The notes below the pieces were generated by a model that saw only the letters and a program-made list of their open reading frames with translations, had not been told where the DNA came from and did not search any database. From IMG/VR virus record IMGVR_UViG_3300021255_004000, positions 128,001 through 192,000 of that record: DNA of 64,000 nt. One strand, written 5' to 3'. Below, piece after piece: positions 3,985 through 56,491 of the stretch (positions within the stretch are counted from its first letter, which is position 1; each line of letters opens with the position of its first letter). The position numbers and the translations under genes are program-made. Source of the stretch: a virus. Taxonomy: Duplodnaviria > Caudoviricetes.

Positions 3985-4013
3985 AATATAAAAGAAACTA
4001 AATCAAAGTTCAA
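3985..4013 (-). promoter_or_regulatory. Class I (early, sigma70-like) promoter
   Basis: TTGAAC-17bp-TATATT; one of 8 copies. Confidence 0.85.
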
Positions 4014-4023
4014 ATAATTTCCC

Positions 4024-4052
4024 ACTTTTTTAGCTATATGGGACAATAATAA
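4024..4052 (-). repeat. 29-bp dispersed element, copy A (inverted)
   Basis: Reverse complement is TTATTATTGTCCCATATAGCTAAAAAAGT, identical to 34904 and 59959. Confidence 0.95.
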
Positions 4053-4112
4053 AATATGAAAAATGATATTTTATTTTATTATTTGTTAATATTTTTATTG
4101 GAGGATTGTCAA

Positions 4113-4310
4113 ATGGACATTAAAGTAAAGAAATCAAAAGACAGAACAACTGTCGTTTTTGAGAGTTCAAATCGTGAATTCAACTTTCAGGAAGTTGAAG
4201 GTGATGCTATTTCAACAAATGAAAAGATGACTTTTACAGACATCATCAAGTCACTTTACCTTGCAGGTAAAAACAATGATGCAGTGTTTATTGAAACAGA
4301 AAATGAATAA
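4113..4310 (+). CDS. Small hypothetical protein (start reassigned)
   Basis: GTTAATAT at 4085, SD GGAGG, ATG 4113. Confidence 0.65.
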   Translation: MDIKVKKSKDRTTVVFESSNREFNFQEVEGDAISTNEKMTFTDIIKSLYLAGKNNDAVFIETENE

Positions 4311-4321
4311 GAGGTATTAAA

Positions 4322-4678
4322 ATGGCCAAAGAGAAAATGACAGATGAAGAGAAACGAGAACAGGAAGAAAGAGATCAGTATGGCGGATATTTGCTCAAAG
4401 AGTTGATAACTCCTCCAACAACTGAAAAGCAGCTTGACATCTTCCTTGAAGATAAGTATGGTGTGTACATCGTTGATGAAGCCAAGTTTAAGCCTTTGTT
4501 CGTTGAAAGCAATCATCACTGTTTGACAAATAAAGCTAACACTTGTATGTGTAAAGATTTCCGTTTGCGTGACAGCGAAGGAAAATGCGCTTGCGGAAGA
4601 TATGAGAAAAGACTCCGCGATGAAGATGACTTTATTAAGATGCGTATTGCATCAATGAAGCGCGGCAAAAAAGGTTAA
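4322..4678 (+). CDS. Ferredoxin-thioredoxin reductase catalytic-subunit-like Cys protein
   Basis: HC...CMC...GKCACGRY resembles CPC/CPC/CHC spacing. Confidence 0.5.
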   Translation: MAKEKMTDEEKREQEERDQYGGYLLKELITPPTTEKQLDIFLEDKYGVYIVDEAKFKPLFVESNHHCLTNKANTCMCKDFRLRDSEGKCACGRYEKRLRDEDDFIKMRIASMKRGKKG

Positions 4679-4687
4679 TATATCATT

Positions 4688-5365
4688 ATGGGAAGAACTA
4701 TCGTTGAAAAAGAAGAGACGATAAATAAACAAGAAGCTCCTCAAACTTTGTATCAACCTGCAGATGATGGCATTGGCTCAGCAGAAGCAGATATAAATGA
4801 TACAAGTATTTCAGGAGTAATGAACTTCTATGAAGATCAGCTTATTAAGTTTGTTTCTGAACAAGTTACAAAAATGGACCAAAAGCTGCTCTTTGATGGA
4901 AACTCGTCTCCTCCGTTACCTTTAATTGATAAAGCTATTATGCAGCACGAGCATGTCACAATGGCATTGACTGCTCTTTATGAACAAGCTCGATGGGCTT
5001 GGAACACTGCAAAAGAAGCTTATGCTGAATGGCACGCAAAAAAGTTTCTTGAAATCCGTATGGAGGTAAATAAGAAAGAAGATGCTCGAGCAAAGTGGTT
5101 TAAGGACACTGAAATCGAGTATATGATTATTGCAAAATATACAAAAGAAGTTGCAGACTTCAAAGCAAGAATTCAACTTGCTGATGCAAAAGTTTCATTG
5201 TTCAGAAGATTGATTGACAGTTGGAACCAATATGCATTCCAGCTTGGTCAGTTGTCAAGAAACGGTATTGCAGAAAAGAACTCTTCTGATATGACTGACA
5301 AGTACGAAGATCAGGACCCAGTTGATACTGCAACACTTGCACTTGCTGCAATGGGACAACAATAA
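4688..5365 (+). CDS. UvsY-like recombination mediator (helical)
   Basis: Helical pattern ...TEIEYMI...VSLFRRLIDSWNQYAFQL resembles T4 UvsY C-terminus. Confidence 0.4.
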   Translation: MGRTIVEKEETINKQEAPQTLYQPADDGIGSAEADINDTSISGVMNFYEDQLIKFVSEQVTKMDQKLLFDGNSSPPLPLIDKAIMQHEHVTMALTALYEQARWAWNTAKEAYAEWHAKKFLEIRMEVNKKEDARAKWFKDTEIEYMIIAKYTKEVADFKARIQLADAKVSLFRRLIDSWNQYAFQLGQLSRNGIAEKNSSDMTDKYEDQDPVDTATLALAAMGQQ

Positions 5366-30921: not shown

Positions 30922-32565
30922 TTATAAGCAGTTACTTAAAACATCAAGTTGTAATGGTTTACCCCAAACATATCCTTGAACATAATCACAACCTAAGAAA
31001 GCCAAAGTTGAAAGTTGAGCTTGATCTTCAACACCTTCAGCAATAACTTTACATCCCATAAGATGCCCAAGTTTAATGATTATATCAACGAATGATCTGT
31101 CACTTTCTTTAGTAAGCATTTTATCAACAAATGACTTATCGATCTTTAACATATCAACAGGCATTTTTGACAAATAGTTTAATGAAGAGTAACCTGTTCC
31201 AAAGTCGTCCAAAGCTGTTTTGACGCCAAGAACTTTTAATCTTTGAACAACCTGTGCAGCTTCTTCAATGTATCTTATATATGAACTTTCAGTTATTTCA
31301 ATCTTTAAGTTCTTTGGCGGGAAACCAGATTCTGAAAGAGAATCAATGACATTCTCAACAAAGCCTTTATTAGTAATGTGTTTTCCAGAAACATTTATTG
31401 ATACTTCAATGTCAGGATGTAAAGTAACGAAATCTTTCATTTGTTTCATTACATTATGCATTACCCACATATCAATTTCATATATAAGTCCGCTCTTTTC
31501 AGCAACCTGAATAAATTGCTGTGTGTTGATGTACTCGCCTTTCTTATTCTTTAATCTTATCAAAGACTCAAAACCTATAAGCTTGTGTGAATTGATTTCA
31601 TATTGTGGCTGATACAACATTTCAAAAGTATTATTCTTGATAGCGTTTTTCAAATCTTTTTCAGTTAAATAACGCTTCATTATTTCTTGGTACATATCTT
31701 GGTCAAAGAAATAGTAATCGTTCTTGCCGCCAAGTTTTGCTTTATACATTGCAGTATCCGCATAAGAAAGCAACTGTTGTAAGTCTGCAGTATCTTCATC
31801 ATATAATGCCAAACCTGCAGAAGCAGAAACATAATTTGCAAACTTTGACTGAAGTGTTGTGATTGAATGAAGAACATTAGTTACAAACTCTCTTGTTGTT
31901 TCTTTATCTTTTGTTTCATAAATGATTGCGAACTCATCTCCGCCTAAACGACAAACTGTAAATGGATATTTTGACGGAAGTTTGCTCCAAGTTGTAGCAA
32001 CCTCACAAAGTAATTCATCTCCTGCTTCGTGTCCTAAAGTATCATTAACTTGTTTGAAGTTGTCAAGGTCAAGGAACATAAGATAGAAATCTTTTCCCAT
32101 CTCGCTTTTCATTGCAAGCTCACGCAAAAGTCCGCGTCTGTTCAAACAACCTGTAAGTTGGTCTGTATATGCAGCTCTGTCAAGATCTTCTTCATCTTGT
32201 TTTAATCTTTTAATGTAACGCCACAATGTATAGACTAAACAACATCCCAATAATGAAAATGCCATTCCTGCACCGCAGTTGATAAATCCTTCGTGAATAA
32301 AATTGAGAATTGCAGATGCAAGCATAAAAGCATTGATTGGGAATACTATTTTGAAGACTTTTCCATTTGAAATGATCATTGCAAGAGAAAATGCGAATAT
32401 CTGAAAAGCCATCATACAACCGTTGATTGTAACGATTGCAGCTTTTGGAAGTGTGACGAGACAAGGAATGACTCCTAAGCCGTTAAGTAAAATTACTGTA
32501 AAAAATATAAGGCCCAGGAGAATCAAAATCTTTGAGATTGTGCGTCTTCTAGGTATGGTCTTCAT
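30922..32565 (-). CDS. Membrane-bound diguanylate cyclase / phosphodiesterase (GGDEF-EAL); start reassigned to 32565
   Basis: 4 TM; DLDNFK, RLGGDEF, ESLIR, EITES, DDFGTGYSS, KIDKSF, EGVE, QGY; ACTAATT 10 nt before ATG. Confidence 0.95.
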   Translation of the reverse strand: MKTIPRRRTISKILILLGLIFFTVILLNGLGVIPCLVTLPKAAIVTINGCMMAFQIFAFSLAMIISNGKVFKIVFPINAFMLASAILNFIHEGFINCGAGMAFSLLGCCLVYTLWRYIKRLKQDEEDLDRAAYTDQLTGCLNRRGLLRELAMKSEMGKDFYLMFLDLDNFKQVNDTLGHEAGDELLCEVATTWSKLPSKYPFTVCRLGGDEFAIIYETKDKETTREFVTNVLHSITTLQSKFANYVSASAGLALYDEDTADLQQLLSYADTAMYKAKLGGKNDYYFFDQDMYQEIMKRYLTEKDLKNAIKNNTFEMLYQPQYEINSHKLIGFESLIRLKNKKGEYINTQQFIQVAEKSGLIYEIDMWVMHNVMKQMKDFVTLHPDIEVSINVSGKHITNKGFVENVIDSLSESGFPPKNLKIEITESSYIRYIEEAAQVVQRLKVLGVKTALDDFGTGYSSLNYLSKMPVDMLKIDKSFVDKMLTKESDRSFVDIIIKLGHLMGCKVIAEGVEDQAQLSTLAFLGCDYVQGYVWGKPLQLDVLSNCL

Positions 32566-32575
32566 ACAAATTAGT

Positions 32576-32770
32576 TTATGGTTCCTCGGGATGTCGGATG
32601 TAATAATCAGTTTCAGTAAAGAGTTCGCCACAGTCACTTGGTCTCTCCTTATCATTGATTGTATATCCGAAACAACAACAAGGAACTCTTTCGTTGTTAG
32701 GACCTTTAGGCGGAGCAACACGATACTTGCAAAGGCGACATCCTGTAGGTTTAGATTCTTTCTTAGCCAT
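32576..32770 (-). CDS. Small Cys-rich protein
   Basis: CRLC...CCC...C. Confidence 0.55.
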   Translation of the reverse strand: MAKKESKPTGCRLCKYRVAPPKGPNNERVPCCCFGYTINDKERPSDCGELFTETDYYIRHPEEP

Positions 32771-38577: not shown

Positions 38578-40992
38578 ATGAATATTATTCTTCCAGGTGA
38601 ATCGGGCGTAAGCAAATACGATGAAGATCCGAATGCACCACTTTATACTGAAGACAAAGATGTTGTAATGACCAAAGATGAAAAGAAGCATTGGATGGCA
38701 GGCGATGATGTTCCTGTTATTCAAGCAACCAATCCTTGGTCGATGCAAGTTGATGACACAAATGTGGATAAAGATTTTTATAAGCAAAATCTTGAAATGC
38801 CACAGCAACCCGCAGATCAGATACTTACTTTAGGTAAAGCAGACTTCAATCAAAACATAAATAATGTTGCAAGTATCTTACGAGATATTTTGGCAGGTGA
38901 TCCTAAAGCAATGGAAAGGCCCGAGTTCCAAGCGCTCAATTTCCCTGCAATTAAAGCTTATCTTGAATGGGCAATTAAAACAAATACTTTAGCTGATGCA
39001 GCTAAAGGTGACTTGATGAACAATGCTTGGCGTCTTAATTTCAAATGTAGACCGCCAACACCCGAAGAGTTCTTACAAGAAAAGTTTATCGGTGCGCAGG
39101 CTGAAGCTTTGCACAAACCTCTTATTGACATTTTCTGTGAGTTCTTCGACCCACTTAAACCTTATCGAACTTTGGTTCTTACGCAGTGTATCGGTTGGGG
39201 TAAGTCAACACTTTCTACACTTGCACAGCTTTATATCTCAGTTCACTATGCAATGATGTGGCACCCATATCGTTTCTTTGGTATGGCTATGTCTTCAATC
39301 TTTACTCAATGCTTGGGCGGTTGGAACCAAAAGAAAGCGTCAGAATTGTTACTTGAGCCTTTTACTCAGATTCTTGAAGGCGCTCCTTATTTCCAACGCG
39401 TTCGTACACACCAAGATTTGGTTGACGCTTCAGCTGAAGATATAAGTGACTGCATTCACTGGACAACATCAACACCAACATCTGCGCTTGCAATGCAAAA
39501 CGGTGTCAACTATAAGATTATCAATGGTGCAGGTTCTATCTTGGGACAGAACATCATTTCAGCAGTAATTTCTGAGTTGACAATGTTTTCAGAAAATGGT
39601 TGGTCAGACGACAAAATCTTTACATTCTTTACAAAACTTCGTAAAAGAATTGATAACCGTATGAAAGGCAACTACTATGGACGGTTCATCATTGACTCTC
39701 AGCCAAACTCACTTGAAAGTCCTATTGACGAATGGATTTGGGACGAAGGCACAAAAAAGAATAAAAAGAATTATATCGTTACAGGCTCAAGATGGAAGTA
39801 CTTTCCAAAAGAGTTCCCAACAGCGTGGGAGACACCTCGAACAGATTGGAAGCAGCCTGTCAATCTTAAGAAAGACTTTGTTCACGCATTCCCAGTGTTT
39901 AAGGGTGGTGATGGACAGCCGCCTAAAGTTGTTGAGACTGAAAATGAATTATCAACTTACAATCCACAGGATATTGAATGGGCTCCAATGAATCAGATTA
40001 CTTCAAACGGTGTCGTTTCATTCAAAGACAACGCTGAAGAATCTCCAATCAACTTCTTACGAGACCAAGCAGGTATTCCTTCAGGCGCGGCTGACCGTTT
40101 GATTTACAATAAAGAATGGATAGATCATACATTTGATAACAATCTTAAAAACATTTATTCAACGATCATTGCAAAGACTGAAGATGAGCCTGAACATTTG
40201 ATTTGGAATCAAGTTAAAGATAAGTTCTTCAACAAGATTCTTGGTAAATATTATTTCTATTATGAACCGTCTTTGCCTCGTGCTGCATCAATCGACTTGG
40301 CTATTTCAGGCGATACTGCAGGCATTGCAATAAGTCACGTTGAAAGAGATAAAGTGCGACTTGATACACAAGGACAACCTTTGAAAGTTTATGTTACTGA
40401 TATGGTTGTTCCTGTTATTCCTAAAGGTGGTATGATTAACTTGGATGCTTTCAAGTTCTTTATCCTTGACTTAATTCGACTTGGCAATATGAACATTCGT
40501 CACGTGTCGTTCGACTCATTCCAGTCAAGAGCTATGATGCAGTCATTGGAGCGTGCAGGCATTGAAGTTGATTATGTTTCAGTCGATAAGAATAATGCAC
40601 CTTACTTGTCACTTGTTGACTATGTAATTCATAAAAGATATTACTGTGGCAAATCTGTTATGGTAAAGAACAACTTGCTTGCTTTACAAATGGTTAAGCG
40701 AAAGACGACAGGAACAACAAAGATAGATCATATGAACGGTGAAAATGTTTATAGTGATGAGTTCTGTCTTCCAGGTTCAGAATATACAGAGCAAAGTTGG
40801 CAGTGGAGCAAGGTTGGAAGTAATGCAAAAGATATTACTGACTGCATTGCAGGTAACTTGCATTTGCTTGATACTTATGAAAATGAGTATATCCCATTCC
40901 ACATTTGGGATCCATTAAAAGAAAAAGAAAGAACCTATGAGGGTGAAAAGAAAAAGCAACAACTTTTAATTAAAAATATGGGATTCCATTAA
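38578..40992 (+). CDS. terL: Terminase large subunit
   Basis: Walker A CIGWGKS, Walker B-like AVISE, RNase H-like IDLA..GD, SFDSFQS, KDITD. Confidence 0.85.
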   Translation: MNIILPGESGVSKYDEDPNAPLYTEDKDVVMTKDEKKHWMAGDDVPVIQATNPWSMQVDDTNVDKDFYKQNLEMPQQPADQILTLGKADFNQNINNVASILRDILAGDPKAMERPEFQALNFPAIKAYLEWAIKTNTLADAAKGDLMNNAWRLNFKCRPPTPEEFLQEKFIGAQAEALHKPLIDIFCEFFDPLKPYRTLVLTQCIGWGKSTLSTLAQLYISVHYAMMWHPYRFFGMAMSSIFTQCLGGWNQKKASELLLEPFTQILEGAPYFQRVRTHQDLVDASAEDISDCIHWTTSTPTSALAMQNGVNYKIINGAGSILGQNIISAVISELTMFSENGWSDDKIFTFFTKLRKRIDNRMKGNYYGRFIIDSQPNSLESPIDEWIWDEGTKKNKKNYIVTGSRWKYFPKEFPTAWETPRTDWKQPVNLKKDFVHAFPVFKGGDGQPPKVVETENELSTYNPQDIEWAPMNQITSNGVVSFKDNAEESPINFLRDQAGIPSGAADRLIYNKEWIDHTFDNNLKNIYSTIIAKTEDEPEHLIWNQVKDKFFNKILGKYYFYYEPSLPRAASIDLAISGDTAGIAISHVERDKVRLDTQGQPLKVYVTDMVVPVIPKGGMINLDAFKFFILDLIRLGNMNIRHVSFDSFQSRAMMQSLERAGIEVDYVSVDKNNAPYLSLVDYVIHKRYYCGKSVMVKNNLLALQMVKRKTTGTTKIDHMNGENVYSDEFCLPGSEYTEQSWQWSKVGSNAKDITDCIAGNLHLLDTYENEYIPFHIWDPLKEKERTYEGEKKKQQLLIKNMGFH

Positions 40993-41928: not shown

Positions 41929-42273
41929 TCACTCATTTTTGTCCTCCACAATAAGGTTACCCTCATCGTCATATAACATTATTTGTTTAACCCGCACAAA
42001 AGCTGTGGGTTCTATTTTTGAAAGGAACTCGAAAATGCATTCGGGTACCCAACAAGTGTTCCATTCTTTACTTTTCAACTGTCTTATAACAGCCAAAGTT
42101 TTGTTAACTTTTCTTGGGTCAAGTTTATCATAGTCAACTCGAACAGTTTCTCCATTTGGAGAAAGTTCTTTTGACACAAGAATATCAATTATTCCTAAAG
42201 AAACAAGACGATAGTCTCTTAAGTCAATACTTGTCTGTCCAAAGTTTTTATTTATGTGAATTATTTTTTCCAT
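41929..42273 (-). CDS. PxxFxG-module family member (divergent)
   Basis: TCWVPECIFEFLSKIEPTAFVRVKQIML; start reassigned to MEKII. Confidence 0.55.
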   Translation of the reverse strand: MEKIIHINKNFGQTSIDLRDYRLVSLGIIDILVSKELSPNGETVRVDYDKLDPRKVNKTLAVIRQLKSKEWNTCWVPECIFEFLSKIEPTAFVRVKQIMLYDDEGNLIVEDKNE

Positions 42274-42688
42274 CAACCATTTGAAGATTTGGACAACCTG
42301 CAAAGCAATTTGGATTTCTGTCAAGTAAAACAGCAGCAACATCTTCTGTCACAATAATTGTTTCATATTGAAAAACCTCAAGTCGCTTTATGATTGACTC
42401 TGTTTCGTCTTCATAGCCTCCGTCATCAAATATTCCACAAGGACCGTCAGGATCATTTTCATTTTCAGGTACAATGTAATAACTCGAAAGATCCATAATC
42501 TTTTTCTTCGGTCTTACAATTTCATCAGCCATTTGGATAGTGCCTCCATTATATTTAGCAATAGCATCAATAACTGCACACTTTAGCATATCTAAAGACA
42601 TACCGCTTAAGGCCATTGATTGTAATGAGGCATATACATTAGGTGGCAATTTTGTTGCAAGATCTTTTAATTCATCCCAGTCGTTCAT
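42248..42688 (-). CDS. PxxFxG-module family member
   Basis: TIIVTEDVAAVLLDRNPNCFAGCPNLQMV. Confidence 0.65.
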   Translation of the reverse strand: MNDWDELKDLATKLPPNVYASLQSMALSGMSLDMLKCAVIDAIAKYNGGTIQMADEIVRPKKKIMDLSSYYIVPENENDPDGPCGIFDDGGYEDETESIIKRLEVFQYETIIVTEDVAAVLLDRNPNCFAGCPNLQMVDGKNNSHK

Positions 42689-42707
42689 TGCCTACCTCAA
42701 TTTGATA

Positions 42708-45700
42708 TTAACTGTTAGGCACGCCTGTATGTAAATAAAGTAACAATGTCCGTGCCAAAACACCTGCTACTCTTTCTGACATTGAAAACTCATCGTCAGT
42801 CTTTCCGCGTTTTTGTCTAGGGAAAGAAGCAACCTGATAAAGTTGAACATAAACACAGTTATCAAGTTTGCTGAATGAAAGTATTTCACAGTGTGAAATG
42901 CATTCAACATACAAATGAGGCAAACTTTTTACATCTGCCTTAACTGCTTCAAGCAACCACTGAGTAATCTTTTCAATCGAATCTCTTGAAAGAATGATCT
43001 GATTGAAGAATTCTTTGTTCTTTACTTTATCCTTGACGATTGCAACACTATAAGTTTGGTAAGGCACATCACAATAAAATTGCAATGAATAGCCATCACT
43101 TGAAACTCTTGCTGCCAAGTCAAGCGGCTCAACTTTCTCTTTCATATTTTAACCCATTTTTGTATCTTCATTCCACCCACAGATTTCAGCATTGATATAT
43201 CGACCATTTTCAAGCAATAAGTCTGAACGAATAGTCATATCACCAATAACAATATCAAGCAGGTCACAATCTTTACGAGGCCTTACCCCAGTAATCTGGT
43301 ATGTACCATCACCCCAAACAACAAGATTGCCCACTGCTGGGCGATGTAACTTGTCGTAGGGTTTATATTTTGGTAAGCCCACAAAACGATCCGCGCCTTC
43401 AGGTTTTTGAGTTTGTTCATCATTGTCTTCAGCATTTTTTGCCTCCGTTAGTTTAGTTATATGCTCTTTGTAAGCAAAAAGAAGTTTACTTTTGTTTACT
43501 CCTGAGTAAAATCTTATTGTTTCTTCATCTTCATCAAACTCAATATAAATGCCATCATAACCTTGAAAGATAGTTTCACCTGTTCTGATATTGTCAAAAT
43601 TGACAAAACCTTGGTATTTATCTGTGTCTGATGCTTGAAGATTTGGGTACCCGATAACTGTTGCAAACTCAGCAAAAACATCTTCATTGTGCTCGAAGTC
43701 ATCGAAAGTAAAAATCATATTAAGCATTATTCACCCTCTTTATAAAAGAGAACAAAGCCTGTACTGTTTGCAACAATCTGAACAACAGTAACGCCTTCAC
43801 CGTTCACAAAATCACAAAGCTCTTCTCTTGTACGAAAGTAACTACTTTTCAGTTGCAGCATTCATTCCTCCAAGGTCATATCCATATTTTTCAGCGAGTT
43901 GTTCAATTTCTTTGAAGGTTTTTCCATTCAAAGGGTTGTTCTTTTTACCTCGCCAAAAGTTGATTGTTTTCATAAGCAATGCTTCATTCATATTTACACC
44001 TCTTCTTCACGGACAACGAAAACATCTTTTGTTATTCCATCGCCTCTTGTGTACTCGCGGACTTCGATAATGTCTTTTTCAAAATCACCATCATAAAAGT
44101 AAACTGATGGGCGTTCGCGTGTAAGAGACCAATGAAATATAATATCCCAAATGTCTCTTGCAGACAAATACTCATAAGTATGATGATGATCTTTATCATC
44201 ACGATAGTATCTTGCGTAATCAACAGTGATTGGCTTTTCAAGCTTGTAAACTTTTTCATCATAGTTGGCAAATGCGATTCTTTTGAAATCTTCAAAAGTC
44301 ATTTTCTTTGCATATTCATAAGATGCTTTTTCAAGTTCGAGCCAGTCATAACCTGATGAGCGTTCCAAATCTTGAATGTCTTTCTTAATCAAGTTGAAGT
44401 AATCTTCAAGAGAAATGAAATCAGAAAGTTCATACTCATAAAAAGTTTCTTCAAACTCTTTAACTTCAAAAGGACGCTTAAGCAGGATTTCGTGGTTGAC
44501 AAAACGCTGCCACATTGTAAGAGGAATGATAAATCTAACTTTACTTTTAAGTGAACTCATTTTGCAACCTCCAAAATTATATTAACTTAGTCCCACCAAA
44601 AATCAGCTCTTTCATTCCAAAGATCAGCAATTTTATCAAGGAGAGAACGACGATATGCTTTGAACTCTTTCCAAAGTTTTTCATATTCTTCAATTCTTTT
44701 CTTGTCGTCATCTTTGTATTTTTTCCAAATGTCGTCAGAGCGAGACTTCCAAGGTTCACTGTAAGTATAGTCAAGGTCATTGAGTTGTTTCAAAAGCTTG
44801 CGGTATTCATACAAGTCGTGAAGCTTTCTTCTCTGTCCACGAACAACATTGCGAAGGCGAGGAGAGAGATTATGCAACTCTGTTGTTTCAAAATGAATTG
44901 AATTGGCATACATAATTGCATTGCGGTCAAAGTTGGTAACATCGGGTTCATCTTTGCAGTTGTTTACCCAAGCAGACATCTCTTCCCAAGTATCAAAACT
45001 TGCAATTTGAGTGTGTTCATAAACTTCTTTGTCACAAGGAATATGTCCTTTGAGGTTGCCATCATCATCAATGTCAAATCTGTAAAAGCGTTTACTTTTT
45101 GGGATTTTGTCAGCAGGGATAACATCGACAACTTTCTTATCGAAAATCATCCAAGGTTTGCTGCTTTCTTTGTCGTATGTGTAATAGTACTTACCGCCGT
45201 ACCACTGCAATTCACTTGTTTCCTTTGCACGATCTTGAACATACTTCAACGCATAGAACATATCAGGTGCTTCACAGTTATCAAGGAAGTCAGGAGAGTC
45301 AACATAGCACATTGCTTCGCAACCATATTTGCGAAGATTGTGATACATATGTTCAACTTTCATAATCTGCCACTGAAGCAAAGTGTTATGACCGTTCCAA
45401 GTATCATTCAAAAATGAAACATTTCTGTCATAATCACCAAGTCTTTTGCGGAAGCGATACCAGTATTCTGTTTCAAAAAATTGACTTACAACCCGCTTAA
45501 CTTCTTTGAAAGGGTTATTTCTCATCAGCTGCCTCCATATATTCTACTATTGATTTAGCAAGTAATTTGCATTCTTCATCAGTAAGTAATTTACTTACAT
45601 CAGGCTTTTCTTTTACACTTGGAAGTCCACAAAGTTTGTTGATGTCAACGAGTATCTTACAGTAACGCTTGCCATCAATTTCAACGCCTGTGTTGCAACA

Positions 45701-48341
45701 GTCTTCTCTGCTTTCGTGACAAGGACAGTTGTTGTTTTCACAAGGCTGCAAAATTGTAACATAGCCAGTGTCATTAAGGTTTTCACCATCACAAGTTGCC
45801 TTTTTATCTGATGCAACTTTTGCAACAAGATCCCAGAACATTGCGTCCTCAACAAGTTTTGTTACTTCTTCAATAGAAATGTAGCCTGTCTTAGGATGCT
45901 TAAAATGATACCACTTTACACCATAGTATGCGATGGTACCCACAACAAAAATAATAAAAGCAAGATAAACAATTAACATCAAGTTCATAATTTCAATTCC
46001 TCCAAAGATTCTTTATACATTTTATCATAATCCCAAGTTGCTTCTTGTATTCGGAAGAGAGCAGCATTGTGGTTTACATCATCAGTATTAGAAGATGCCC
46101 AACAAAGCCAGTTCTCTTTGTCAAGAGTATATTGTTCACCCCAGTATTCAGCTGCATAAGCAAGCAAGTTTCTTCGATAAAAGTTGCCTGTGCTTGTGTG
46201 AATATCGTGAAAGAATGTTTCAATAATCTCAGTATTTATATGATTAAACTTCCAATCTTTTCGATATGCAAATGGCGTAAAAACTTTAAGAAGAAAATCT
46301 TTGTGCTGTTCACAACGCTTCCAAATAATGTACCTGTCTGTTTCAAGAGTTGGATAATCAAAGTCCTTGAAAGTTAATTGCTCCTTCTTTCTTTTTGCTC
46401 TTTTCCATCTATGAACATATTCACTAATAAAGAGTCCGATTGTATCAATTTCTCGATGACGAGGTTGTGAAATCTTTGCAATGTTGATGTACATACGATC
46501 TTGTGAACAAGACATACTTGCAACAATATTCCCATAATAAGGAATTAAGTCTCGAGGACTGCTTACTTTCAATGGAACATCATCGATTGTAATGTTTGCG
46601 TAAGAAACTCTATCTGGAGAATAATGCATCAAACAAGTATCGCCAAAATCACTTTTGTCTGAAAATTGACTCATATATCCTCCAAATAAAATATTAACTT
46701 ACCACTTTTCTTCTGCAGTTTTTTGTAAGTACAAAATCTTGTCAAGAATGTCGTGAAAGTATCGAACTGCATCAATGAAGCTGTTATAGTCAATATGATA
46801 CTCATTCATTGCATCGAACAAACGAGGTCCTATTGTGCGAATGTCATATCCTTCACGAGTCTTTTCAAAAAATGCAAGTGTATAGCAAGTTTCTCTGCCG
46901 TCATCTCCACGCTGGTAACAAACTATTTCAGGCTGACGACCTTTGTCAGCATCATTAGAAGTAATCTTACCGTGGAGTCCTATGTCACCTTTTCGCCAAT
47001 TCAAATCGAACGAAAAGTCAAATTCTTTACCAATCATCTTTACCTCCTATCAAGGCTTCTTTATCAACCTGACTTGCCATGATTTCAAGCAGATTCACTG
47101 TAGGCTTTTTGTCTTCAAAACCTTTGACATCGTGAAGTCCTGCATTATTCTTTTTGCAGTTTTCAATCAATTCATCAATTTCCTTCTGACCGAGTTCCAT
47201 CTTCAATTACCTCCCAAGTATCTGCTTCGGAAAGAGCCGCAAGGCTCATTCCTTCAAGCCATATTTGCCAACCCCAAGGGGACTGTGTTACTCTTAAAAC
47301 TTTTCCGATGTGTCCTTCGTATCGACGATCTTTCTCATCAGCTTCGCCCATACTTAGTACTTTTATTGTTTTACCTACGAGAGATTCAAAATCATTCATT
47401 TTCTTTCTCCCTTAAGAAATAATTTGATACGAGTTGGGATAACAACAAGTGAGTCACAATCATCGCAACATCTACCTGTGTTCTTTACAGGCGCAGGATT
47501 GTTTCCAAACCCATAAAAAGTTTGTCCGCAGATAACGCATTTGAATGTAGGCTTATCCATTTTCAACTCCTTACAATACCAAAGTCAAAGACTCTTCATC
47601 GTACTCGATCTCTGAATAAAGAGCGTACTGTTTAAGAAGCTCTTTCATCTTGTCAATCAATTTGATGTCTTTTCTCATATCAGCAATCTCTTGCTTAAGC
47701 TTACAGATTTCATCTTCCTTTTTGTCGAGTTCATCTGTAAGATGCGTCATTTCTTTTTCAAACTGTCTTTCAAACCCAGCGCGAAGTCTTTCTTTTGCAA
47801 CCTCATAGTTCATCTCCATCTCGCGCTCAGAGAACCTCTTTTCGTTTGCTTCGTCGTCAAAGTTGTCATCATTGTAATAGTAATCTTTGAGAGCATTCAT
47901 TCTCTGATGATGTATCTCATCAAGTCTTTTATACTCCCAAGGACTTACATACTCATCAGGATTCAATTAAGCCACCTCCTCAGTAAGCCACTGCTGAAGG
48001 TCATCAAGATTTTCAATAAGACTTCCAATCTGTTTCCAGCCTTCTCGATTGCTCAAGCAAACTGGGTCAACACTTGATACACAGCACCCGCTTTTGTCAA
48101 TCGAAAACTCTACAACAAACTGTCCTTTGTCAAGTTTTGCTTCAACATAAAAGTAGATTCTATCACGAGGCGTTCCATCAACAGTAAACAAGGCAATGCG
48201 AACATCCCACAGTCCTTTTGCCTTCAAATCAACAAATTCATTGAAGCGCTGTGCAATATCACGCCAAGTTGCAACATTTTTGCCAAGTACAATCTTGTCA
48301 TCTGCTGCTCCTGCCAAAACTGATGCTGGACCTCTAACCAT
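42708..48341 (-). CDS. Cluster of co-oriented hypothetical genes (42708-43145, 43149-43727, 43994-44560, 44587-45525, 45515-45988, 45985-46674, 46699-47037, 47175-47399, 47571-47966, 47967-48341 plus several <60-aa ORFs)
   Basis: Tightly packed, mostly SD-preceded minus-strand ORFs; no recognisable family. Confidence 0.6.
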
Positions 48342-48371
48342 AGAATCCTCCTTTTGTTCGGTTACAATAAT

Positions 48372-48400
48372 AATATAAAAGAGGATTTAGAAAAGTTCAA
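48372..48400 (-). promoter_or_regulatory. Class I promoter
   Basis: TTGAAC-17-TATATT. Confidence 0.85.
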
Positions 48401-48408
48401 AAATATTT

Positions 48409-50358
48409 TTAATATGTCATTGAAAGTGCCTGCTTATCAGTAAACACTTGCCCTTGAACATTATCAAGGGTGTCAGGCATTGTGAGTTTGCCAATCAAGT
48501 CATTATAAACAATATCACGATCTTGCATTGAACTGTAAGAATATTCTCTGTCATCATTGATAACAATAAGGAACTCACCATTTGTAGGAGCCCAGTCATC
48601 TTTGCCATTTTTGTCAGGGCCAATATATCTTTCTCTTTTTGTGATTATGTCAATTTGGTCAAGGCGAATTACATCTCTGTCGAGTTTGTAGAAATTGTTC
48701 ATATACCAAGCTCCTTAAAGTAAAGGATAATTGGAACGCCTTGTATATCAAGATGATGTTCTTTAAGATCGTCTGTAATTGCTCGTGTTATGAATTGGTT
48801 AAGTACTTGAAATGAATCATTGTCAGTAATGCGACCTGTCATAGGAAGAGTAACGTTTCCGAAACGAGGAGTGAGGTCATTCTTTATGTTATATTGATAT
48901 GAAACAAAACACCAATGTTCTTTTTCAGTTGTTTCTTTTTCCATCAAGTTCCTCCAATTCAACATCAAAACATTCATCAATGTCGTGATATGAAATTATA
49001 TATTTCGTCTTGTTCTTAAACTCAACTACATATCCATCAAATACTGCTTTAGATATATTAACTATTTCGTCGAGCGAAAAAGTAGCGCGACCTACTATTT
49101 GTCCCTTTGCGTTGATAAGTTCAACGGACATATCAGTTGCGCCATCTTTCAATTTCCAAGACTTTACCTTCTGAGGAACGAACATAATAATTAGTCAGAT
49201 GCTTTCTGATTTTTATCACGCTGTTCCTGTATCTTCATTGCATCTCCGATTGTAAACTTATCTTCAACAGCTCTTTCTTTTGCAATTCTTTCAAGATTGC
49301 GTTTGTTCTGACGACGCTGTCTACTGTTGAAATGTTTATCATCGTCTTTATGTGTAAAGCCTGCTCCCATTTTAAGTAAGGCGTTTGTCTGAGACTCATA
49401 AGCTTTACGAACAAGGAAAAGGAAGTCTGCAGGAGTTCCATCAGGTACAAGCTGCTGAAACTTGTCAATCAAACTGCCGAACATCATTGCAGAAGTAAGT
49501 TGAGCGTGTGGATTTTCGCCTCTTCCCATCATAAGAGCAATAACCGCTTCTTGTACAAGGTCATTGACTTTTGCAGCTTCTTGTTCTTTTTCTTCTTTCA
49601 TAATTGCAAAAAGCTTATCTTTTGGATCGATTGTCCAAGCAGAGTTAAAATCTTCCCAAGAAATCTTCTGTTCAAGACCACCTGCTTTAAGAATGATACC
49701 GTCTTTTGCCTTATTAAGAATTCTTACTCGTATCAAGTTTTTCTCCTACAACTTCGCGATAGTATATCTTTACTTCTTCTTCAGACAATCTGTCGAGCTT
49801 CTGAATAATCCTTTTTGAATATGCAATCTGCTTCTTTGCATTTGTAAGCTCTTTCTGATGTAAAAAGCGGTCATACCTCAGAATTGTAAATTGCATTCTC
49901 CAAAAGTCTTTTTTCATTTGCTTTGAAAGTGAGCCCCAATCATCAATAACAAATGAAACTTTATTTGGCTTGTTTTCTTTTACATTTCTCCAGCCGTGAG
50001 AGTGAATATGCTTTGTATCATTTGAAACTGCAAATGATTTAGGCTTTCCTGTCCACTCAAGTGTATCAAAGGATTTATAACCAAACTTTGGAATAGCGTT
50101 GAATCCATCTTTCTTGAGGGCAGCAATTTCCTTTTCGATTGCAGGAAGATACACATCCTTTTGTTCGTTGATTTGATATGACGCCCACTTGATTTTGCCT
50201 TTGTGAAAGTCCCTTATTGATGTTTTCATTTCTTCAATAGTCGTATCCATTTGAATTCCAACATCTTCACAGTACTTTCTAAAAACCCTGCCTTTCTCAG
50301 AGTTTGAGAAAAACTTATTTGCAAGCTGCATAAATAATTCCTGTGTTATCTTTGTCAA
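48409..50358 (-). CDS. Cluster of hypothetical genes (48409-48702, 48699-~48944, 48925-49185, 49191-49736, 49714-50358)
   Basis: Coupled minus-strand ORFs. Confidence 0.6.
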
Positions 50359-51377
50359 AGTGCACCTCCAAAAAGAAGTCTTAACAATGTTTCATTTGAA
50401 CGCATATTGTAATATGGGTTCTTTTCGTACTTCACTTTCTCGAAGTCATCTCCGATGTTTTCAGTATCAAGAATGAAGCCACAGTTGTGTTCGTGGTTAT
50501 CACAAACAATCAACTTATGAGTACGATACTTAAACTTCTTCAAACCGAGTTCTGTATGTCCTACAACCTGACATTTCAAATGTCCAGGCCAGTTATCTTG
50601 AAGCAATGAATTAGGACGAATCCAAATACAAGATTCACCAGGTGAATCACCACTGCCTGAATATCCACAATGGCAGAAATACTCTGTATCACTGTCAAGA
50701 ATTGCCTTCAATGTTTTAACATTAAAAGTTGTTGAAAAAGCATCCTTGAAATAAGGCTCCATTGCAGTGTAAGCATCGTCCATCATCTTCTTTGCATAAG
50801 CCTGTTTTTCGTGATACTCTTCAATGTACTTCTTTTCTTTTTCAGTTTTCGGATTTACAAGAGAACGAACAACACCATCAAAGAAGACATCTTCAATATG
50901 ATTGTAATTGTACTTCCACTTGTTATATTCACGCATCAGTTCCTTTGGTACTTTGTCCATTTTATGTTTGTCATTGTACCAAGAAACTGTCCTGTTGTAC
51001 CAATGCTGTGAAACGCCTGCGTGTGAAAACAAAACGCCATCAATAAGAACTGCAGGATATATGATATCCATATTCTTTGTGAACATCTCGTAATACATTT
51101 TTTCATATTCAAAATGATGTCCACTACAAGTTTGACTTGAAATGTATGCGTGATCGTGATTGCCTAAACAAATACAGAACTTATCAGGTTCTGCCCGTGC
51201 CATTTCTATAAGTTGTAAAAATCCCTCCTGCATAGGTTTACCATTGAGCTCATCTTCCCAATCGTCAACATAATCACCAAGAGTTACAACATAATCAACT
51301 TTGTCTTTGTTTGCCTTAATGAAGGCGAGAGCCTGATTCCAACTTCCGTGAATGTCAGGTACCACTAGAACTTTCAT
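50355..51377 (-). CDS. Calcineurin-like metallophosphoesterase
   Basis: DIHG, GDYVD, GNHD, HAG, GHT. Confidence 0.9.
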   Translation of the reverse strand: MKVLVVPDIHGSWNQALAFIKANKDKVDYVVTLGDYVDDWEDELNGKPMQEGFLQLIEMARAEPDKFCICLGNHDHAYISSQTCSGHHFEYEKMYYEMFTKNMDIIYPAVLIDGVLFSHAGVSQHWYNRTVSWYNDKHKMDKVPKELMREYNKWKYNYNHIEDVFFDGVVRSLVNPKTEKEKKYIEEYHEKQAYAKKMMDDAYTAMEPYFKDAFSTTFNVKTLKAILDSDTEYFCHCGYSGSGDSPGESCIWIRPNSLLQDNWPGHLKCQVVGHTELGLKKFKYRTHKLIVCDNHEHNCGFILDTENIGDDFEKVKYEKNPYYNMRSNETLLRLLFGGAL

Positions 51378-51666
51378 ACTTTCTCGTCTCCCAATTTATA
51401 ATTTTATCAACTTCTCTCTGTATGACTGCTGCATCAATCTGCTTTACATCTTCGTCATCATCAACTTCATAATTCCAATAATATTCAAAATTGATATAAT
51501 AACACTTTATATCTTTGCGATAGCCATAATCAATATTGATTACAGATATTTCTTCATCTTCAGTAATTTCAGCAACTTTATTCATAAATTGCTCGTGTTC
51601 TTTTTTACTGAAAAGATATGAGCCTTTCGAAGGCGCATCTGTATCACAGGTCAAATTCACTGTCAT
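51355..51666 (-). CDS. Hypothetical protein
   Basis: SD GAGGAG; coupled. Confidence 0.6.
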   Translation of the reverse strand: MTVNLTCDTDAPSKGSYLFSKKEHEQFMNKVAEITEDEEISVINIDYGYRKDIKCYYINFEYYWNYEVDDDEDVKQIDAAVIQREVDKIINWETRKYESSSGT

Positions 51667-52364
51667 ATTCTCCTCAATAGTTCATCAATCTCATCGTTTC
51701 TTTCTGCGTCTCGAACAGCAGCACCTTCATTTTGACGAATTTCTTCTGTTCGATTTCTGATACGCTGAATGTACTCTTCGTTCGTTTCATCTTTGTAACC
51801 GTCAAGATTTTTAGGCAATTCAGTTAAACCTACATCAGCAGTTTCATCGGTTACAACAACTTCCCAGCCATCAAAAATTGTTGGGTCCTGTTCTGAACAA
51901 AAGTCAAGAACAAATGATGAAAGATAAACAGTTCTCTTTACACCGTTTTTCAGTTCATTAAGAACATCAGTTGTAACATCAACCATTTCCATAGGTCCGT
52001 CAGCGTGATATTTATTTATGAACAACCGATTATTTGCTGTATCAACTTCAACATCAGTCAAACGGTAAACTGCTTTCTTTGCATATTCTTTCTTTGTCTT
52101 CTGAAGATCTTTTCGGATCTCTTCAAGGATCTTATTGTTCTCTTCGTCAAACTCGTACTGCTCTTCACCAATGATTTCACCTTTATTGTAATATGTTACA
52201 ACAGCGCCTGTGAATTCACTAGCAAGATAGTTAAAACCGTTGTCGGTCCAACTGTTATAGCCCAAGTTTAAGCGTCGATGACGAAGAGTTGAGCAGTCTG
52301 TTGTGTCGCCATAATAAAGATCAGCTGTGTATGCGCTTCCTAAAGAATTATTCAATACTGTCAT
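51663..52364 (-). CDS. PxxFxG-module family member
   Basis: TVYLSSFVLDFCSEQDPTIFDGWEVVV. Confidence 0.7.
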   Translation of the reverse strand: MTVLNNSLGSAYTADLYYGDTTDCSTLRHRRLNLGYNSWTDNGFNYLASEFTGAVVTYYNKGEIIGEEQYEFDEENNKILEEIRKDLQKTKKEYAKKAVYRLTDVEVDTANNRLFINKYHADGPMEMVDVTTDVLNELKNGVKRTVYLSSFVLDFCSEQDPTIFDGWEVVVTDETADVGLTELPKNLDGYKDETNEEYIQRIRNRTEEIRQNEGAAVRDAERNDEIDELLRRI

Positions 52365-52690
52365 TATGACTCCTCAAAGTAATCATCATCATCTTCATCA
52401 ATCAAGTCGAGATCAATTCCCTGGAAAATGTTTGGATTTTGCTCGAGAAGATATTCCGCATTCGTTTCGGTGATTTTCAATTTACCACCTTCAACATATT
52501 TGCGCATAAACTCAACATCTTTTAATTTGACAGGACACTTCTTTGTATCATATTTAGGAGCATCATCTTCTTTGTTTTCAGTATCTGTCAGAATGTCGGA
52601 CAAATTGAGCCCAGGCATTGAACCTGTGGCCTGTGTAAGAGCTGTCACACTTTGTATCATTTTCAAAAACTCGGAATTACTCTGTCCCAT
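52364..52690 (-). CDS. PxxFxG-module family member
   Basis: KLKITETNAEYLLEQNPNIFQGIDLDL. Confidence 0.7.
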   Translation of the reverse strand: MGQSNSEFLKMIQSVTALTQATGSMPGLNLSDILTDTENKEDDAPKYDTKKCPVKLKDVEFMRKYVEGGKLKITETNAEYLLEQNPNIFQGIDLDLIDEDDDDYFEES

Positions 52691-53030
52691 CTTCGTCCTC
52701 CTTCAAAGGTTCTCCTATATTGATATTAACTCCATCAAAAATTGTTGGGTCAACTCTTATCAATTCCTCAACGACTTTATGATGCATACAAACACTGTTG
52801 CCTGTTTCTTTATTGTAAAAGCCGCTTATCACTCTTCTTATTGTTCCTGAAGTCATATAAATAACTCTTGCAGGAAGCTTAAGTTTCTTAATGTCATTTT
52901 CAAATCTTTTATGTTGTTCTTTTGTTAGAACAACTCTTTCGCAAGTACCAATGTCAGTATAGCGAATCATTTCTTCTGCACTTTTATGAAGCTGTTTGAG
53001 CCATTCATCTCGTAAGTTTCTGTCATTCAA
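52677..53030 (-). CDS. PxxFxG-module family member (TTG start likely)
   Basis: SVCMHHKVVEELIRVDPTIFDGVNINI. Confidence 0.7.
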   Translation of the reverse strand: MNDRNLRDEWLKQLHKSAEEMIRYTDIGTCERVVLTKEQHKRFENDIKKLKLPARVIYMTSGTIRRVISGFYNKETGNSVCMHHKVVEELIRVDPTIFDGVNINIGEPLKEDEDGTE

Positions 53031-53343
53031 TGTACAACTCCTTTCCATCAAACAACTCAGGATTCTTATCAAGAAAATATTCCGCAACTGCTGAGTTCAA
53101 TGAAATCATCGTACTCTTTTTAATTGCTTCAATAACATATTGTGTCAAAGTCATTTGAGCAGTTGTTGTGTCAATCATCAAGTCTGGATTTCCGTCAAGA
53201 AACACAAACCCAGTGAGATCAAGATCGCCTTTTGCTGAAACACAACTTGTCAAATCTGCTGTGAAGTTTGGAGTACCCCAAGAATCTCCTGGGTGATATC
53301 CAAACTGTTGTGTGCCATTCGGACAAAACTTATTCATCAGCAA
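53023..53343 (-). CDS. PxxFxG-module family member
   Basis: MISLNSAVAEYFLDKNPELFDGKELYI. Confidence 0.7.
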   Translation of the reverse strand: MLMNKFCPNGTQQFGYHPGDSWGTPNFTADLTSCVSAKGDLDLTGFVFLDGNPDLMIDTTTAQMTLTQYVIEAIKKSTMISLNSAVAEYFLDKNPELFDGKELYIE

Positions 53344-54394
53344 GTCCTTCGATATGAGGAATGATTTCGCCGCGCTTTACAATCTTTACTTTTGAACCGA
53401 TTTCAATTCCGTGCTTAATCAACCAATTTGCGTTTGAGCAAGATGCTCTCTTAACAGTTGTTCCACAAAGATCAACCGCTTCAACGATTGCAACTGGGTT
53501 GAAGTATTTTCCTGATTGAGACCATTCAATGTCAAGAACAGTTGTTATTGCAACATCAAGTTCAAACTTGATAGCGCAAGAGTTCTTAGGAGTTCTGTTC
53601 TTGAGGTCTTCATAGTCGATAACTTCAGGCTTTACAACCACTCCGTCAATATCATATTCAATGTTTTCACGATTGTTGTACTGAGAAGTACGGAAGGCGA
53701 AAGCTTCTGTCAAGTTCTTTACAACAGCGTGTTCTGGGATTTCAAATCCATTTCCTGAAAGGAATTCCAATTTCTGAACTTCAGTTTTGATTGTCTTTTC
53801 ACCAACTTCCTGCATATCATAAGCAACAAAGTTGAGATTGTCAAGTTCTGAACCGTCAAGATGTTTCATAATTCCTGCAGCAGCATTGCGGCAGTTCTTC
53901 ATCTTGTCTTTGTAGTTTTTGTTGAACATTGAGTGAGACATCAGGATTTCGCCGCGAATTGAACAATCCATTGGCAAGTTCAAAGTTGAATTAACACCTT
54001 TAACAAGCTTTGCATTTTCAGTGATATCATCACCTTCAAAGCCTGTGCCGCGTGTAACTGCCTGAACAAGTTTTCCGTTGCGGAACTTAAGTTCAATTCC
54101 TGCACCGTCCATCTTCTGTTCCATAACATACACACCAGGGTGTTTGCGGAACCATTCTTTGAAAGCAGATTCATCTTTACACTTTGCAAGTGTTCCTGTT
54201 ATCAAATCGTGTTTTGCTTTTGCAAAACCTTCAGTGTGATCGTCATAAGTTACTGTATCAACATAAGTTGGATCAAGAGTTTTCAGTTCATTGACAAGTT
54301 GGTCAAACTCCTTGTCTGACATAATAGGCTCAGCATTGCCGTATGCGATTGATGCTTCTTCGATCTTTGCTTTCAATTCATCAATTCTTGTCAT
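53330..54394 (-). CDS. ligA: NAD-dependent DNA ligase, N-terminal subunit only (Ia, adenylation and OB domains)
   Basis: Y...MSDKEFD, KMDG, TRGTGFEG, RGE, RNAAAG, DGVVVK, AIKF, RGEIIP; ends at 354 aa. Confidence 0.85.
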   Translation of the reverse strand: MTRIDELKAKIEEASIAYGNAEPIMSDKEFDQLVNELKTLDPTYVDTVTYDDHTEGFAKAKHDLITGTLAKCKDESAFKEWFRKHPGVYVMEQKMDGAGIELKFRNGKLVQAVTRGTGFEGDDITENAKLVKGVNSTLNLPMDCSIRGEILMSHSMFNKNYKDKMKNCRNAAAGIMKHLDGSELDNLNFVAYDMQEVGEKTIKTEVQKLEFLSGNGFEIPEHAVVKNLTEAFAFRTSQYNNRENIEYDIDGVVVKPEVIDYEDLKNRTPKNSCAIKFELDVAITTVLDIEWSQSGKYFNPVAIVEAVDLCGTTVKRASCSNANWLIKHGIEIGSKVKIVKRGEIIPHIEGLADE

Positions 54395-54428
54395 AAGTTA
54401 CTCCGTATCAATTCAGTTTTACAGTAAT

Positions 54429-54457
54429 AATATAAAAGAGGTTGCTTAAGAGTTCAA
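54429..54457 (-). promoter_or_regulatory. Class I promoter
   Basis: TTGAAC-17-TATATT. Confidence 0.85.
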
Positions 54458-55935
54458 TTTTTCCGCTTTCATTTTTACAACTTTTTCATAAAGTTTTTTG
54501 ATTTGTGTGCCACTTTCTTTGATCTTTTCCCTAAGATCGTCCAAGAACATTTTTTGCTGTTTCTTCTGTAGACGAAGTTTTTCCACATTCTTGAAAGAGT
54601 TCATAAGAAACTGAACATTTTTGTCTGACATCTTTTCAATAGGGATTTTCGCCATCTTTTTGATGTACCCATATTCCCGCTGCAAGGCATATTCAGTCAT
54701 TGGAAGATTTCCATACTTATTTGCTTTATAGCGATTTTTGAGAGAAACTTCCAAGTTTCGCTGATGTGTCAATTCAACAATTTTAGACTCAAGAGCTTCA
54801 ATACTGTTTTTGCTTTCATACATCTGGCAGTCCTCAAAAGTATCAAACTCTTTGCCGTCTTCTGAAATATAAACTTTCTTTGTTTCGACTGTCATACCAA
54901 GTCCTCCAACTTAATATCTTTATAAGCATCCTCTCGGATAATGTCGTGTTCAAAATTGTCCATAGGGAAACGATGCCGAGTAATGATTCTCTCACGAACA
55001 ATCAACTTTGCATAAGCTTCAGCATTTTTATCATAAAACTTTCGATAATCGTATGTTTGATTATGAGGTTCATAACCTGGGCTGTTTGGTTTGTCAATAC
55101 AACGGCGGTAACAATATTCATCACTCTTTTTACCGCTGTGCTTGCAAGACAAGCAAGGACTTTTCTGTTTGCTTTCGATGATTATAGTTTCTTCTTCAAC
55201 AGAACGCTCAAGAAACAGGTCGCTCATCAATCTCCTCCTCCTCGAGAAGCTTTTCTGTTTCTCGATTAAGTTCCTGACGATCAGATGAAGTATAAAAAGC
55301 AACTCTTTTCAATTTGAGTTCTGAAGTTTTGTTCTTCAGCATCCCATAAGCGCAGTATGAATTCTTAAGTTTTGCAACTTTATTTTCTGATGCCATCAAT
55401 TTCTCCAAACAAATGTACTACTTTACTAGAATGACCAATGTCAACTGAAATGTCGAACAACTTTTCCAAATTAAGAAAGGGATTAAAACCTGTTGCTGCA
55501 GAAATTTCGATTGTAAAATCATCAGGCAGATTTTTCGTCAATTCTCTAAACTGACCCAAAGTAAGTCCGTCCATTTTCAACTCCTTAATTGTGATAGAGT
55601 TCGCGTGCAACAACGAATGGGTTGCCTTTCTGATAACCATATCTGTCTTTCTTGTAAGCAATTTCAAGTTCGAAGTCCTTTCCAAGTTCAAGAGGACCAG
55701 ATTTTGAAAGGATGCAGTCGAAAGAATTGCTGCCGTAAATTGCCTTATCGCAAGACATCTTTGCAAACTTTTCAGCTTCCTTTTCTGTCTTTGCGATTAC
55801 TGTTGACTTTGCTGTGTATGAACCAAGCTGTGGGTTATAGCGGGTGTACTGATATTCAAACTTGTACCATTTTTTCTTTGCAGCCATTTCAAGGCGGTCA
55901 TCAGTTGTCCAAAGATATGCAGGTTTCTTTTCCAT
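54446..55935 (-). CDS. Cluster of early hypothetical genes (54446-54895, 54892-~55227, 55208-~55396, 55380-~55574, 55585-55935)
   Basis: Coupled ORFs after class I promoter. Confidence 0.6.
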
Positions 55936-55969
55936 AATTTGCTCCTTTTATTTGGCGTTTTACAGAAAT

Positions 55970-55998
55970 AATATAAAAGAAGCTAATGCAAAGTTCAA
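55970..55998 (-). promoter_or_regulatory. Class I promoter
   Basis: TTGAAC-17-TATATT. Confidence 0.85.
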
Positions 55999-55999
55999 T

Positions 56000-56491
56000 T
56001 TATTCCCAAGTATTTTTAATTATTTGTACATTTATTCCGTTGAAAAACTCAGGACTGAACTCGATAATTGCCTCAGCTATTGCAGGAAAAACATAAACGG
56101 GAAACTCTCCATAAGATGGAGCAGGAACTGCATCACGAATGCATTTTACCCAAATCAATGTAAAATAAAAGTTTTTGATCTCAGGCGGCATTGGGTATCT
56201 ATCATAATTCTTGATAAAAAACTCTACTGCTTTATCGTAAGCTTTTGAAAAGCCTTTTCTGGAAGCTATTGAAAGTTTATCAACATATGTAATTACGGGT
56301 GATATTGACTGCATTGAAAAGTCGATATAAAAATATCTTTTTACTGCAATGAACACTTGACGATACTTATCTGGGTCATCATCAAAGTCATAGTTTGCTG
56401 CCCAACTTGTCAAAAGACTTCTTGCATACATTGGGTCAAACTTTTTTGTAACTTCAGCCCATTTATTAAGGCTTTCCACCGACTTTGTCAT
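56000..56491 (-). CDS. PxxFxG-module family member
   Basis: PVYVFPAIAEAIIEFSPEFFNGINVQI. Confidence 0.7.
   Translation of the reverse strand: MTKSVESLNKWAEVTKKFDPMYARSLLTSWAANYDFDDDPDKYRQVFIAVKRYFYIDFSMQSISPVITYVDKLSIASRKGFSKAYDKAVEFFIKNYDRYPMPPEIKNFYFTLIWVKCIRDAVPAPSYGEFPVYVFPAIAEAIIEFSPEFFNGINVQIIKNTWE

Follow-up and report, generated by a model that had tools for sequence, protein, structure and literature searches.

Large phages harbour lineage-specific paralog families of small accessory proteins, the small early gene clusters of T4-like phages being an example, and phiKZ-like jumbo phages contain multi-paralog protein families as well. Here we describe a family comparable to these in a 64-kb stretch of an uncultured phage (positions 128,001 to 192,000 of IMG/VR record IMGVR_UViG_3300021255_004000; hereafter the window). 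Seven otherwise dissimilar proteins, labelled m1 to m7, have in common a module of about 50 residues arranged helix–strand–helix–strand. As in the T4-like and phiKZ-like families, the genes are small, tandem and overlapping, lie between replication genes, diverge fast, are confined to one clade and have no catalogued function. They differ from those families in that the module matches no Pfam, PHROGs or NCBIfam model, and in that a core of about 50 residues is common while the flanks are dissimilar. Among described domains, the swapped-hairpin domains of AbrB, MazE and SpoVT (PF04014 clan) resemble the module in having a short strand, a helix, a glycine-containing loop and a strand, and in working as a symmetric dimer, which for the module is a prediction. 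Unlike them, the module has an extra amphipathic helix before its first strand and a longer second helix ending in an invariant proline, and its character is acidic, not that of a DNA binder. Generic beta-alpha-beta (Rossmann-like) crossover units, such as the Lon protease/BrxL C-terminal domain, are a further near system.

The sequence-only reading of this DNA had singled out seven peptides, with four of the genes in tandem behind a DNA ligase gene and two more in tandem at 42 kb. The coordinates agree with that arrangement. All seven peptides occur verbatim, each in a minus-strand open reading frame (ORF) ending where that reading had placed it. The genes are as follows, with lengths in amino acids (aa).

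m1, 53023..53337, minus strand: 104 aa; module DNA 53026-53163; start at ATG 53337 according to orthologs (P0130)
m2, 52677..53048, minus strand: 123 aa; module DNA 52710-52850; start according to orthologs such as P0002
m3, 52364..52690, minus strand: 108 aa; module DNA 52397-52537; N-terminal half predicted to be disordered
m4, 51663..52364, minus strand: 233 aa; module at residues 127-173, DNA 51846-51986
m5, 56000..56491, minus strand: 163 aa; module DNA 56015-56155; helical N-terminal part; ortholog P0126
m6, 42248..42688, minus strand: 146 aa; module DNA 42272-42415
m7, 41929..42273, minus strand: 114 aa; module DNA 41971-42111; the weakest member, lacking the glycine

The m1 ORF opens at TTG 53343, and ortholog starts point to the ATG at 53337. 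The longest ORFs of m2 and m7 open at 53087 and 42342, and their orthologs (P0002 for m2, P0139 and P0141 for m7) begin at methionines equivalent to 53048 and 42273. With these ortholog-based starts, an overlap with the preceding gene is seen for m2, m3, m4 and m7, and one of 8 nt with the ligase stop for m1.

The similarity of the modules is not a product of chance, because a leave-one-out test ranks each omitted member above all nonmembers. For this test, a Hidden Markov Model (HMM) was built from six modules and searched against the stop-to-stop ORFs of at least 40 aa in the window, 666 of which are not members. In every case, the omitted module came directly after the six used for training and above all 666 of the others. 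The E-values were 3.3e-6 for m3, 1.2e-5 for m4, 4.9e-5 for m1, 1.3e-4 for m2, 3.3e-4 for m6, 1.6e-3 for m5 and, weakest, 0.023 for m7, and the best nonmember scored from 0.095 to 1.4. A chance motif is thereby ruled out as the explanation. No eighth copy was found in the window with either the profile of the seven modules (alignment A2, 47 columns) or that of the wider family (alignment A4). In A2, the proline and the phenylalanine of the P..F.G signature are invariant (7/7), and the paralogs are otherwise 15-27% identical. The N-terminal parts show no detectable pairwise similarity by BLASTP (best E 0.24), which upholds the earlier description of one module common to seven proteins with unrelated N-termini. 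Some of its detail needs amendment. The module was said to be C-terminal, and it is so in six of the proteins, with 1-15 residues beyond the last strand; m4 carries it internally (residues 127-173 of 233), ahead of a 62-residue tail. Of the PxxFxG given in that reading, the glycine is present in 6/7, m7 having FVRV instead. An amphipathic helix does generally precede the module, except that in m5 it is weak or interrupted, helix 1 being split there by an insertion. Across the family, the segment before the module spans about 50 to about 130 residues.

The module is an uncatalogued alpha/beta domain of about 50 residues that matches no family in the libraries searched. The seven full-length proteins scored nothing above the curated cut-offs of Pfam-A, PHROGs and NCBIfam, and their weak matches differ for every protein. 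With the cut-off relaxed to E<=10, four Pfam families were matched among 31 modules, each by a single member, so that none recurs; in PHROGs at E<=1, no family was matched by more than two of 32 full-length members. The Pfam models for AbrB/MazE/SpoVT and for ribbon-helix-helix proteins found nothing among the 31 modules at E<=10. Against all PDB sequences, the A2 and A4 profiles had best E-values of 0.02 and 0.12, neither of them significant. With predicted structures of m3 and m4 as queries, neither Foldseek against the PDB (best E 1.6) nor a wide VIA-align search gave a significant match. Neither search listed an AbrB/MazE/SpoVT swapped-hairpin entry, although for a small domain modelled at moderate confidence the absence of a given fold from the Foldseek, VIA-align or ESM Atlas lists is not evidence against that fold.

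The structures were predicted with AlphaFold2, for m3 from a 32-sequence family alignment (A3) and for m4 from its own orthologs only (A5). The m3 model has a disordered N-terminal half followed by a helix (56-65), a strand (70-74), a helix (75-84) and a strand (93-97), with a predicted local distance difference test score (pLDDT) of about 70-79 over the module. In the m4 model, beta hairpins and a 24-residue helix are followed by a strand at 126-129, a helix at 131-140, a strand at 145-148, a helix at 150-159 and a strand at 168-171, with pLDDT about 75-86 over residues 100-175. The predicted module elements of the two proteins are offset by 75 residues, and because this equals the offset of their invariant prolines, the secondary structure of the module is judged to be the same in both. 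Two different alignments thus lead to one predicted secondary structure in the same register. An ESM Atlas shape search with the m4 model, likewise without a significant match, had as its best a 146-aa viral cluster (template modelling score 0.55 by its row, 102 residues aligned). A search by features returned nothing for m3 and a single cluster for m6, of equal length, size and taxa (score 0.81). The 146-aa cluster is probably m6's own, and taken as such, its match to the m4 model lends modest independent support to a shared fold. For the invariant P..F.G, the simpler reading is a helix cap, a core anchor and a turn.

The family is confined to a single clade of uncultured rumen and gut jumbo phages. 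A word-indexed search with the A2 profile reached 544 protein clusters at E<=0.01, the best 120 of which are close orthologs of m1-m7. An exhaustive HMMER search of 1.84 billion representatives clustered at 50% identity gave 32 matches at E<=1e-3. About 28 of these are proteins of 64-232 residues, nearly all placed in seven ortholog groups (P0134 has no clear fit to a single group); the remainder are long repeat proteins matched over many short stretches, which we regard as spurious. None of the family members found by HMMER carries a name or a Pfam domain. A tblastn search with m4 and m6 against 50,697 deposited phage genomes had no match at E<=1, and a related-locus search with m4 alone retrieved only two short IMG/VR contigs. 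Proteins identical to m3 are encoded on ENA scaffolds assembled from ruminant metagenomes, with lengths of 296,235 and 296,784 bp. The seven module genes make up about 2% of the genes of such a 296-kb genome.

The locus is syntenous in two diverged relatives, L004 and L005, where the ligase is followed, in order, by three to five module genes, an m4-like gene, a gene of about 100 aa and a metallophosphatase. With the A4 profile, L004 shows four tandem module genes and an m5-like gene upstream, and L005 shows five in tandem, including a paralog of an eighth type. Identity to the window is 68-77% for the ligase, 72-73% for the phosphatase and 39-40% for m4; the range over m1, m3, m4 and m5 is 34-51%. 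The module proteins are thus among the faster-evolving genes of the block and evolve faster than the neighbouring enzymes. Directly after the ligase, L005 has a 239-aa ORF (4004-4723) with an HNH-like motif, which ends like the ligase C-terminus (…EGLADE); it resembles a homing-endonuclease insertion by which the end of the ligase was duplicated.

Conservation within ortholog groups is lowest in the N-terminal part, and what lies beyond the module can be well kept. The m3 group has an acidic run followed by Y-F-E-E-S or similar (DDDDYFEES type; window 52364-52396), which persists in P0122, P0128, P0149 and P0150 down to about 30-40% overall identity; judged from these sequences, the acidic-aromatic tail may be a short linear binding motif. 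A comparison of our own with the tail of the single-stranded DNA-binding protein led us to drop mimicry of it, as the aromatic residues of the m3 tail are not at the C-terminus. In the m4 group, the 62-aa tail, helical and acidic, is also conserved, with T181, P184, K185, D192 and E193 invariant. The first 40 residues of the m6 group (L-T/P-P-x…G-F/M-S-x-x-E/M-I/L; window 42500-42688, P0136) have, by eye and without Pfam support, the look of a truncated helix-turn-helix or a UBA-like three-helix unit.

The module of m3 is predicted to form a specific homomer. Two copies modelled with alignment A4 gave ipSAE values of 0.55, 0.55 and 0.56, versus 0.00 for the best of three controls, with partner pLDDT of at least 76 and 100% contact agreement between runs. 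The ipSAE mark used is reached by 20 of 30 solved homomers and by 1 of 23 proteins solved as a single chain, counts that apply here only roughly, our own alignment having been used, and the score expresses the confidence of a model rather than a measurement. The predicted interface takes in helix 1 with the loop that follows and the beginning of the first strand (residues 53-54, 58, 61-62, 64-73 and 95). Among the paralogs, these columns have a mean identity of 0.10 and a mean BLOSUM62 score of -0.33, whereas the remaining module columns score 0.28 and +1.24. If the m3 dimer prediction is right, the pairing would therefore be specific to each paralog, and the invariant P..F.G, which lies outside the interface, would together with helix 2 be either pure scaffold or a free conserved face. 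The sequence-only reading had proposed an undescribed modular adaptor system built on a constant docking or oligomerisation domain, of a family that it did not recognise. The module indeed has no significant match in Pfam, PHROGs, NCBIfam, PDB sequences, Foldseek and VIA-align. As to its role, self-pairing gains in silico support for m3, and with an interface in the least conserved half of the module it points to paralog-specific homodimers rather than to a constant dock or free co-assembly.

Most of these proteins are acidic. The isoelectric point (pI) is 4.2-4.5 in four of the seven, that of the module mostly 4.0-4.7, and the net charge is negative in 28 of the 31 A4 module segments, which argues against DNA binding. 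Beyond about 41 kb, nearly all genes of the window are short, overlapping and encoded on the minus strand. The heptamer ACTAATT occurs 11 times in the window where 15 are expected by chance, so that any signal it carries is positional. Ten copies fall on the two strands of the block at 1-38 kb, most of them within a few bases of a gene start (for example 14113, 24526, 26042, 26868, 29428, 32569 and 37369). The 41-64 kb block has a single copy (49189), and none lies upstream of any of m1-m7; the motif being taken as late-type, this weakly suggests that the family is not late. A scan for sigma-70-like promoters was uninformative (57 found, 51.7 expected). Metatranscriptome contigs from four libraries of four studies (bovine, sheep and unspecified gut) cover m4 (X2), m5, m6, m7 and flanks at 90-99% likeness; such contigs cannot prove transcription, and DNA carry-over is possible; where parts of m1-m3 lack cover at 90% or more, silence does not follow. 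At 51456-53027, in two metatranscriptome assemblies, long contigs with 90-95% likeness in the flanks stop on either side of the m1-m4 array, so that the array seems more strain-variable than its neighbours. One loose contig end there still encodes an m1-like module.

We give about even credence to the reading that m1-m7 are a lineage-specific paralog family with a self-pairing core, serving as non-late accessory factors that bind proteins. The family would have grown in a clade of ~296-kb rumen and gut phages by tandem duplication, giving m1-m4 behind the ligase and m6-m7 at 42 kb, with m5 arising by dispersal. The core it conserves would comprise the amphipathic helix 1, a strand, the proline-capped helix 2, a phenylalanine-anchored loop, the glycine, and a strand usually continuing into acidic residues. 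Each paralog would most likely be a symmetric homodimer formed through helix 1 and the first strand, and such a dimer would display, side by side and in duplicate, the variable N-terminal head or C-terminal tail of that paralog. We infer that the targets are host or phage proteins rather than DNA, and that expression is not late, because the proteins are mostly acidic, are encoded in the minus-strand replication and repair block without ACTAATT, and evolve faster than the neighbouring enzymes. Several points weigh against this reading. The monomer models are of modest confidence overall (mean pLDDT 61.8 and 55.5), and two strands alone make no stable sheet unless the domain pairs or borrows strands. 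The dimer is predicted for one member only, and the model may pair small alpha/beta fragments generically. Rapid evolution is not specific to the family, other small genes of the block diverging equally fast (x214 49%, x103 35-69%), and the expression class is read from the lack of a short motif whose overall frequency does not exceed chance.

The seven could instead be plain whole-gene duplicates that remain recognisable only in their structural core, with heads that are homologous but eroded and lack distinct roles. We hold this possible rather than probable. It agrees with the tandem arrangement, with the span of the m4-model match to the presumed m6 cluster, whose 102 residues extend beyond the module, and with the N-terminal part being least conserved even within ortholog groups. 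It has to contend with pre-module lengths of about 50 to 130 residues, an internal module in m4, predicted N-termini that differ (disorder and one helix in m3, beta hairpins and a 24-residue helix in m4) and the lack of detectable similarity among them. The sequence-only reading had put forward a modular adaptor, in which the constant module docks on one hub (host protease, RNA polymerase or phage scaffold) to deliver different heads, or in which the paralogs co-assemble as hetero-oligomers. The invariance of P, F and mostly G among paralogs otherwise so dissimilar would suit such a system, as would the overlap and probable co-translation of the genes and the location of the conserved half outside the predicted self-interface, where it is free for a shared partner. 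Those residues, however, are typical of a helix cap, a loop anchor in the core and a turn, the paralog-specific interface argues against free co-assembly, and our analyses point to no particular partner.

A further point for the adaptor comes from short contigs in which near-identical modules stand behind unrelated N-termini. P0123 is identical to m3 at 50 of 53 residues from helix 1 on, P0011 to m6 at 63 of 66, and P0129 has the m2 module. These contigs are 525-1638 bp long, come from one sample each and may be chimeric assemblies; we treat them as leads and not as evidence. Recombination within the array is another lead. Over D-P-T-I-F-D-G, m2 (~52790-52809) and m4 (~51926-51945) share 20 identical nucleotides, and in a 900-bp metagenome contig (L008), m2 is joined to m4 exactly at these (546-565), with m3 and also the N-terminal part of m2 removed; this reflects either a genuine deletion variant or a chimeric assembly. 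Taken together, a diverged family of tandem duplicates accounts for the data as well as an adaptor system does, and we think the adaptor unlikely. Its more specific form, in which helix 2, the P..F.G loop and the last strand dock on one hub and the set brings up to eight heads, as dimers, to the same machine, strikes us as quite doubtful; if true, it would be a modular targeting system not described for phages. Finally, the proteins could be small dimeric DNA-binding regulators of the AbrB/MazE or ribbon-helix-helix kind, or virion-packaged internal proteins with a shared capsid-targeting module. To our reading of the sequences, the order of strand, helix, glycine loop and strand recalls AbrB/MazE-type domains, and phage internal proteins, those of T4 for instance, do share targeting peptides. 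With negative net charge in nearly all of the modules, no match to the corresponding Pfam models at E<=10, and genes in a non-late block without ACTAATT, we consider both highly improbable.

At present, what m1-m7 share is a domain of unknown function, though a well-defined one. Unannotated small genes abound in large uncultured phages, and here seven of them collapse into one family with a defined, foldable and probably self-pairing core. The A2 and A4 profiles could annotate several hundred metagenomic proteins (the 544 clusters at E<=0.01), and the core provides a handle for structure work and pull-downs. If the conserved face does bind a common target, the family would illustrate how several effectors of a rumen phage are directed at a single machine of the host; if it binds none, it is one more lineage-specific domain of that class.

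The conserved neighbours of the m1-m4 array and the terminase are the following.

NAD-dependent DNA ligase, 53330..54394, minus strand: 354 aa; conserved upstream neighbour of the array
Metallophosphoesterase, 50355..51377, minus strand: 340 aa; conserved downstream neighbour of the array
Large terminase, 38578-40992, plus strand: 24% identical to the nearest deposited phages

The ligase is assigned from Pfam matches (Nlig-Ia, DNA_ligase_aden and OB_DNA_ligase) on an ortholog of identical length. One 103-aa gene lies between the array and the metallophosphoesterase gene, and a beta-CASP nuclease and a DEAD_2 helicase are further neighbours. The block in which ACTAATT stands at gene starts contains two giant ORFs, both on the minus strand: one of 1861 aa without a Pfam match (18926-24511) and one of 1567 aa with BspA-type leucine-rich repeats (9406-14109; E 1e-13). 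Also on the minus strand, at 30922-32721, a 599-aa phage protein has full GGDEF (E 1e-34) and EAL (E 5e-75) domains, which amounts to phage-encoded cyclic di-GMP turnover.

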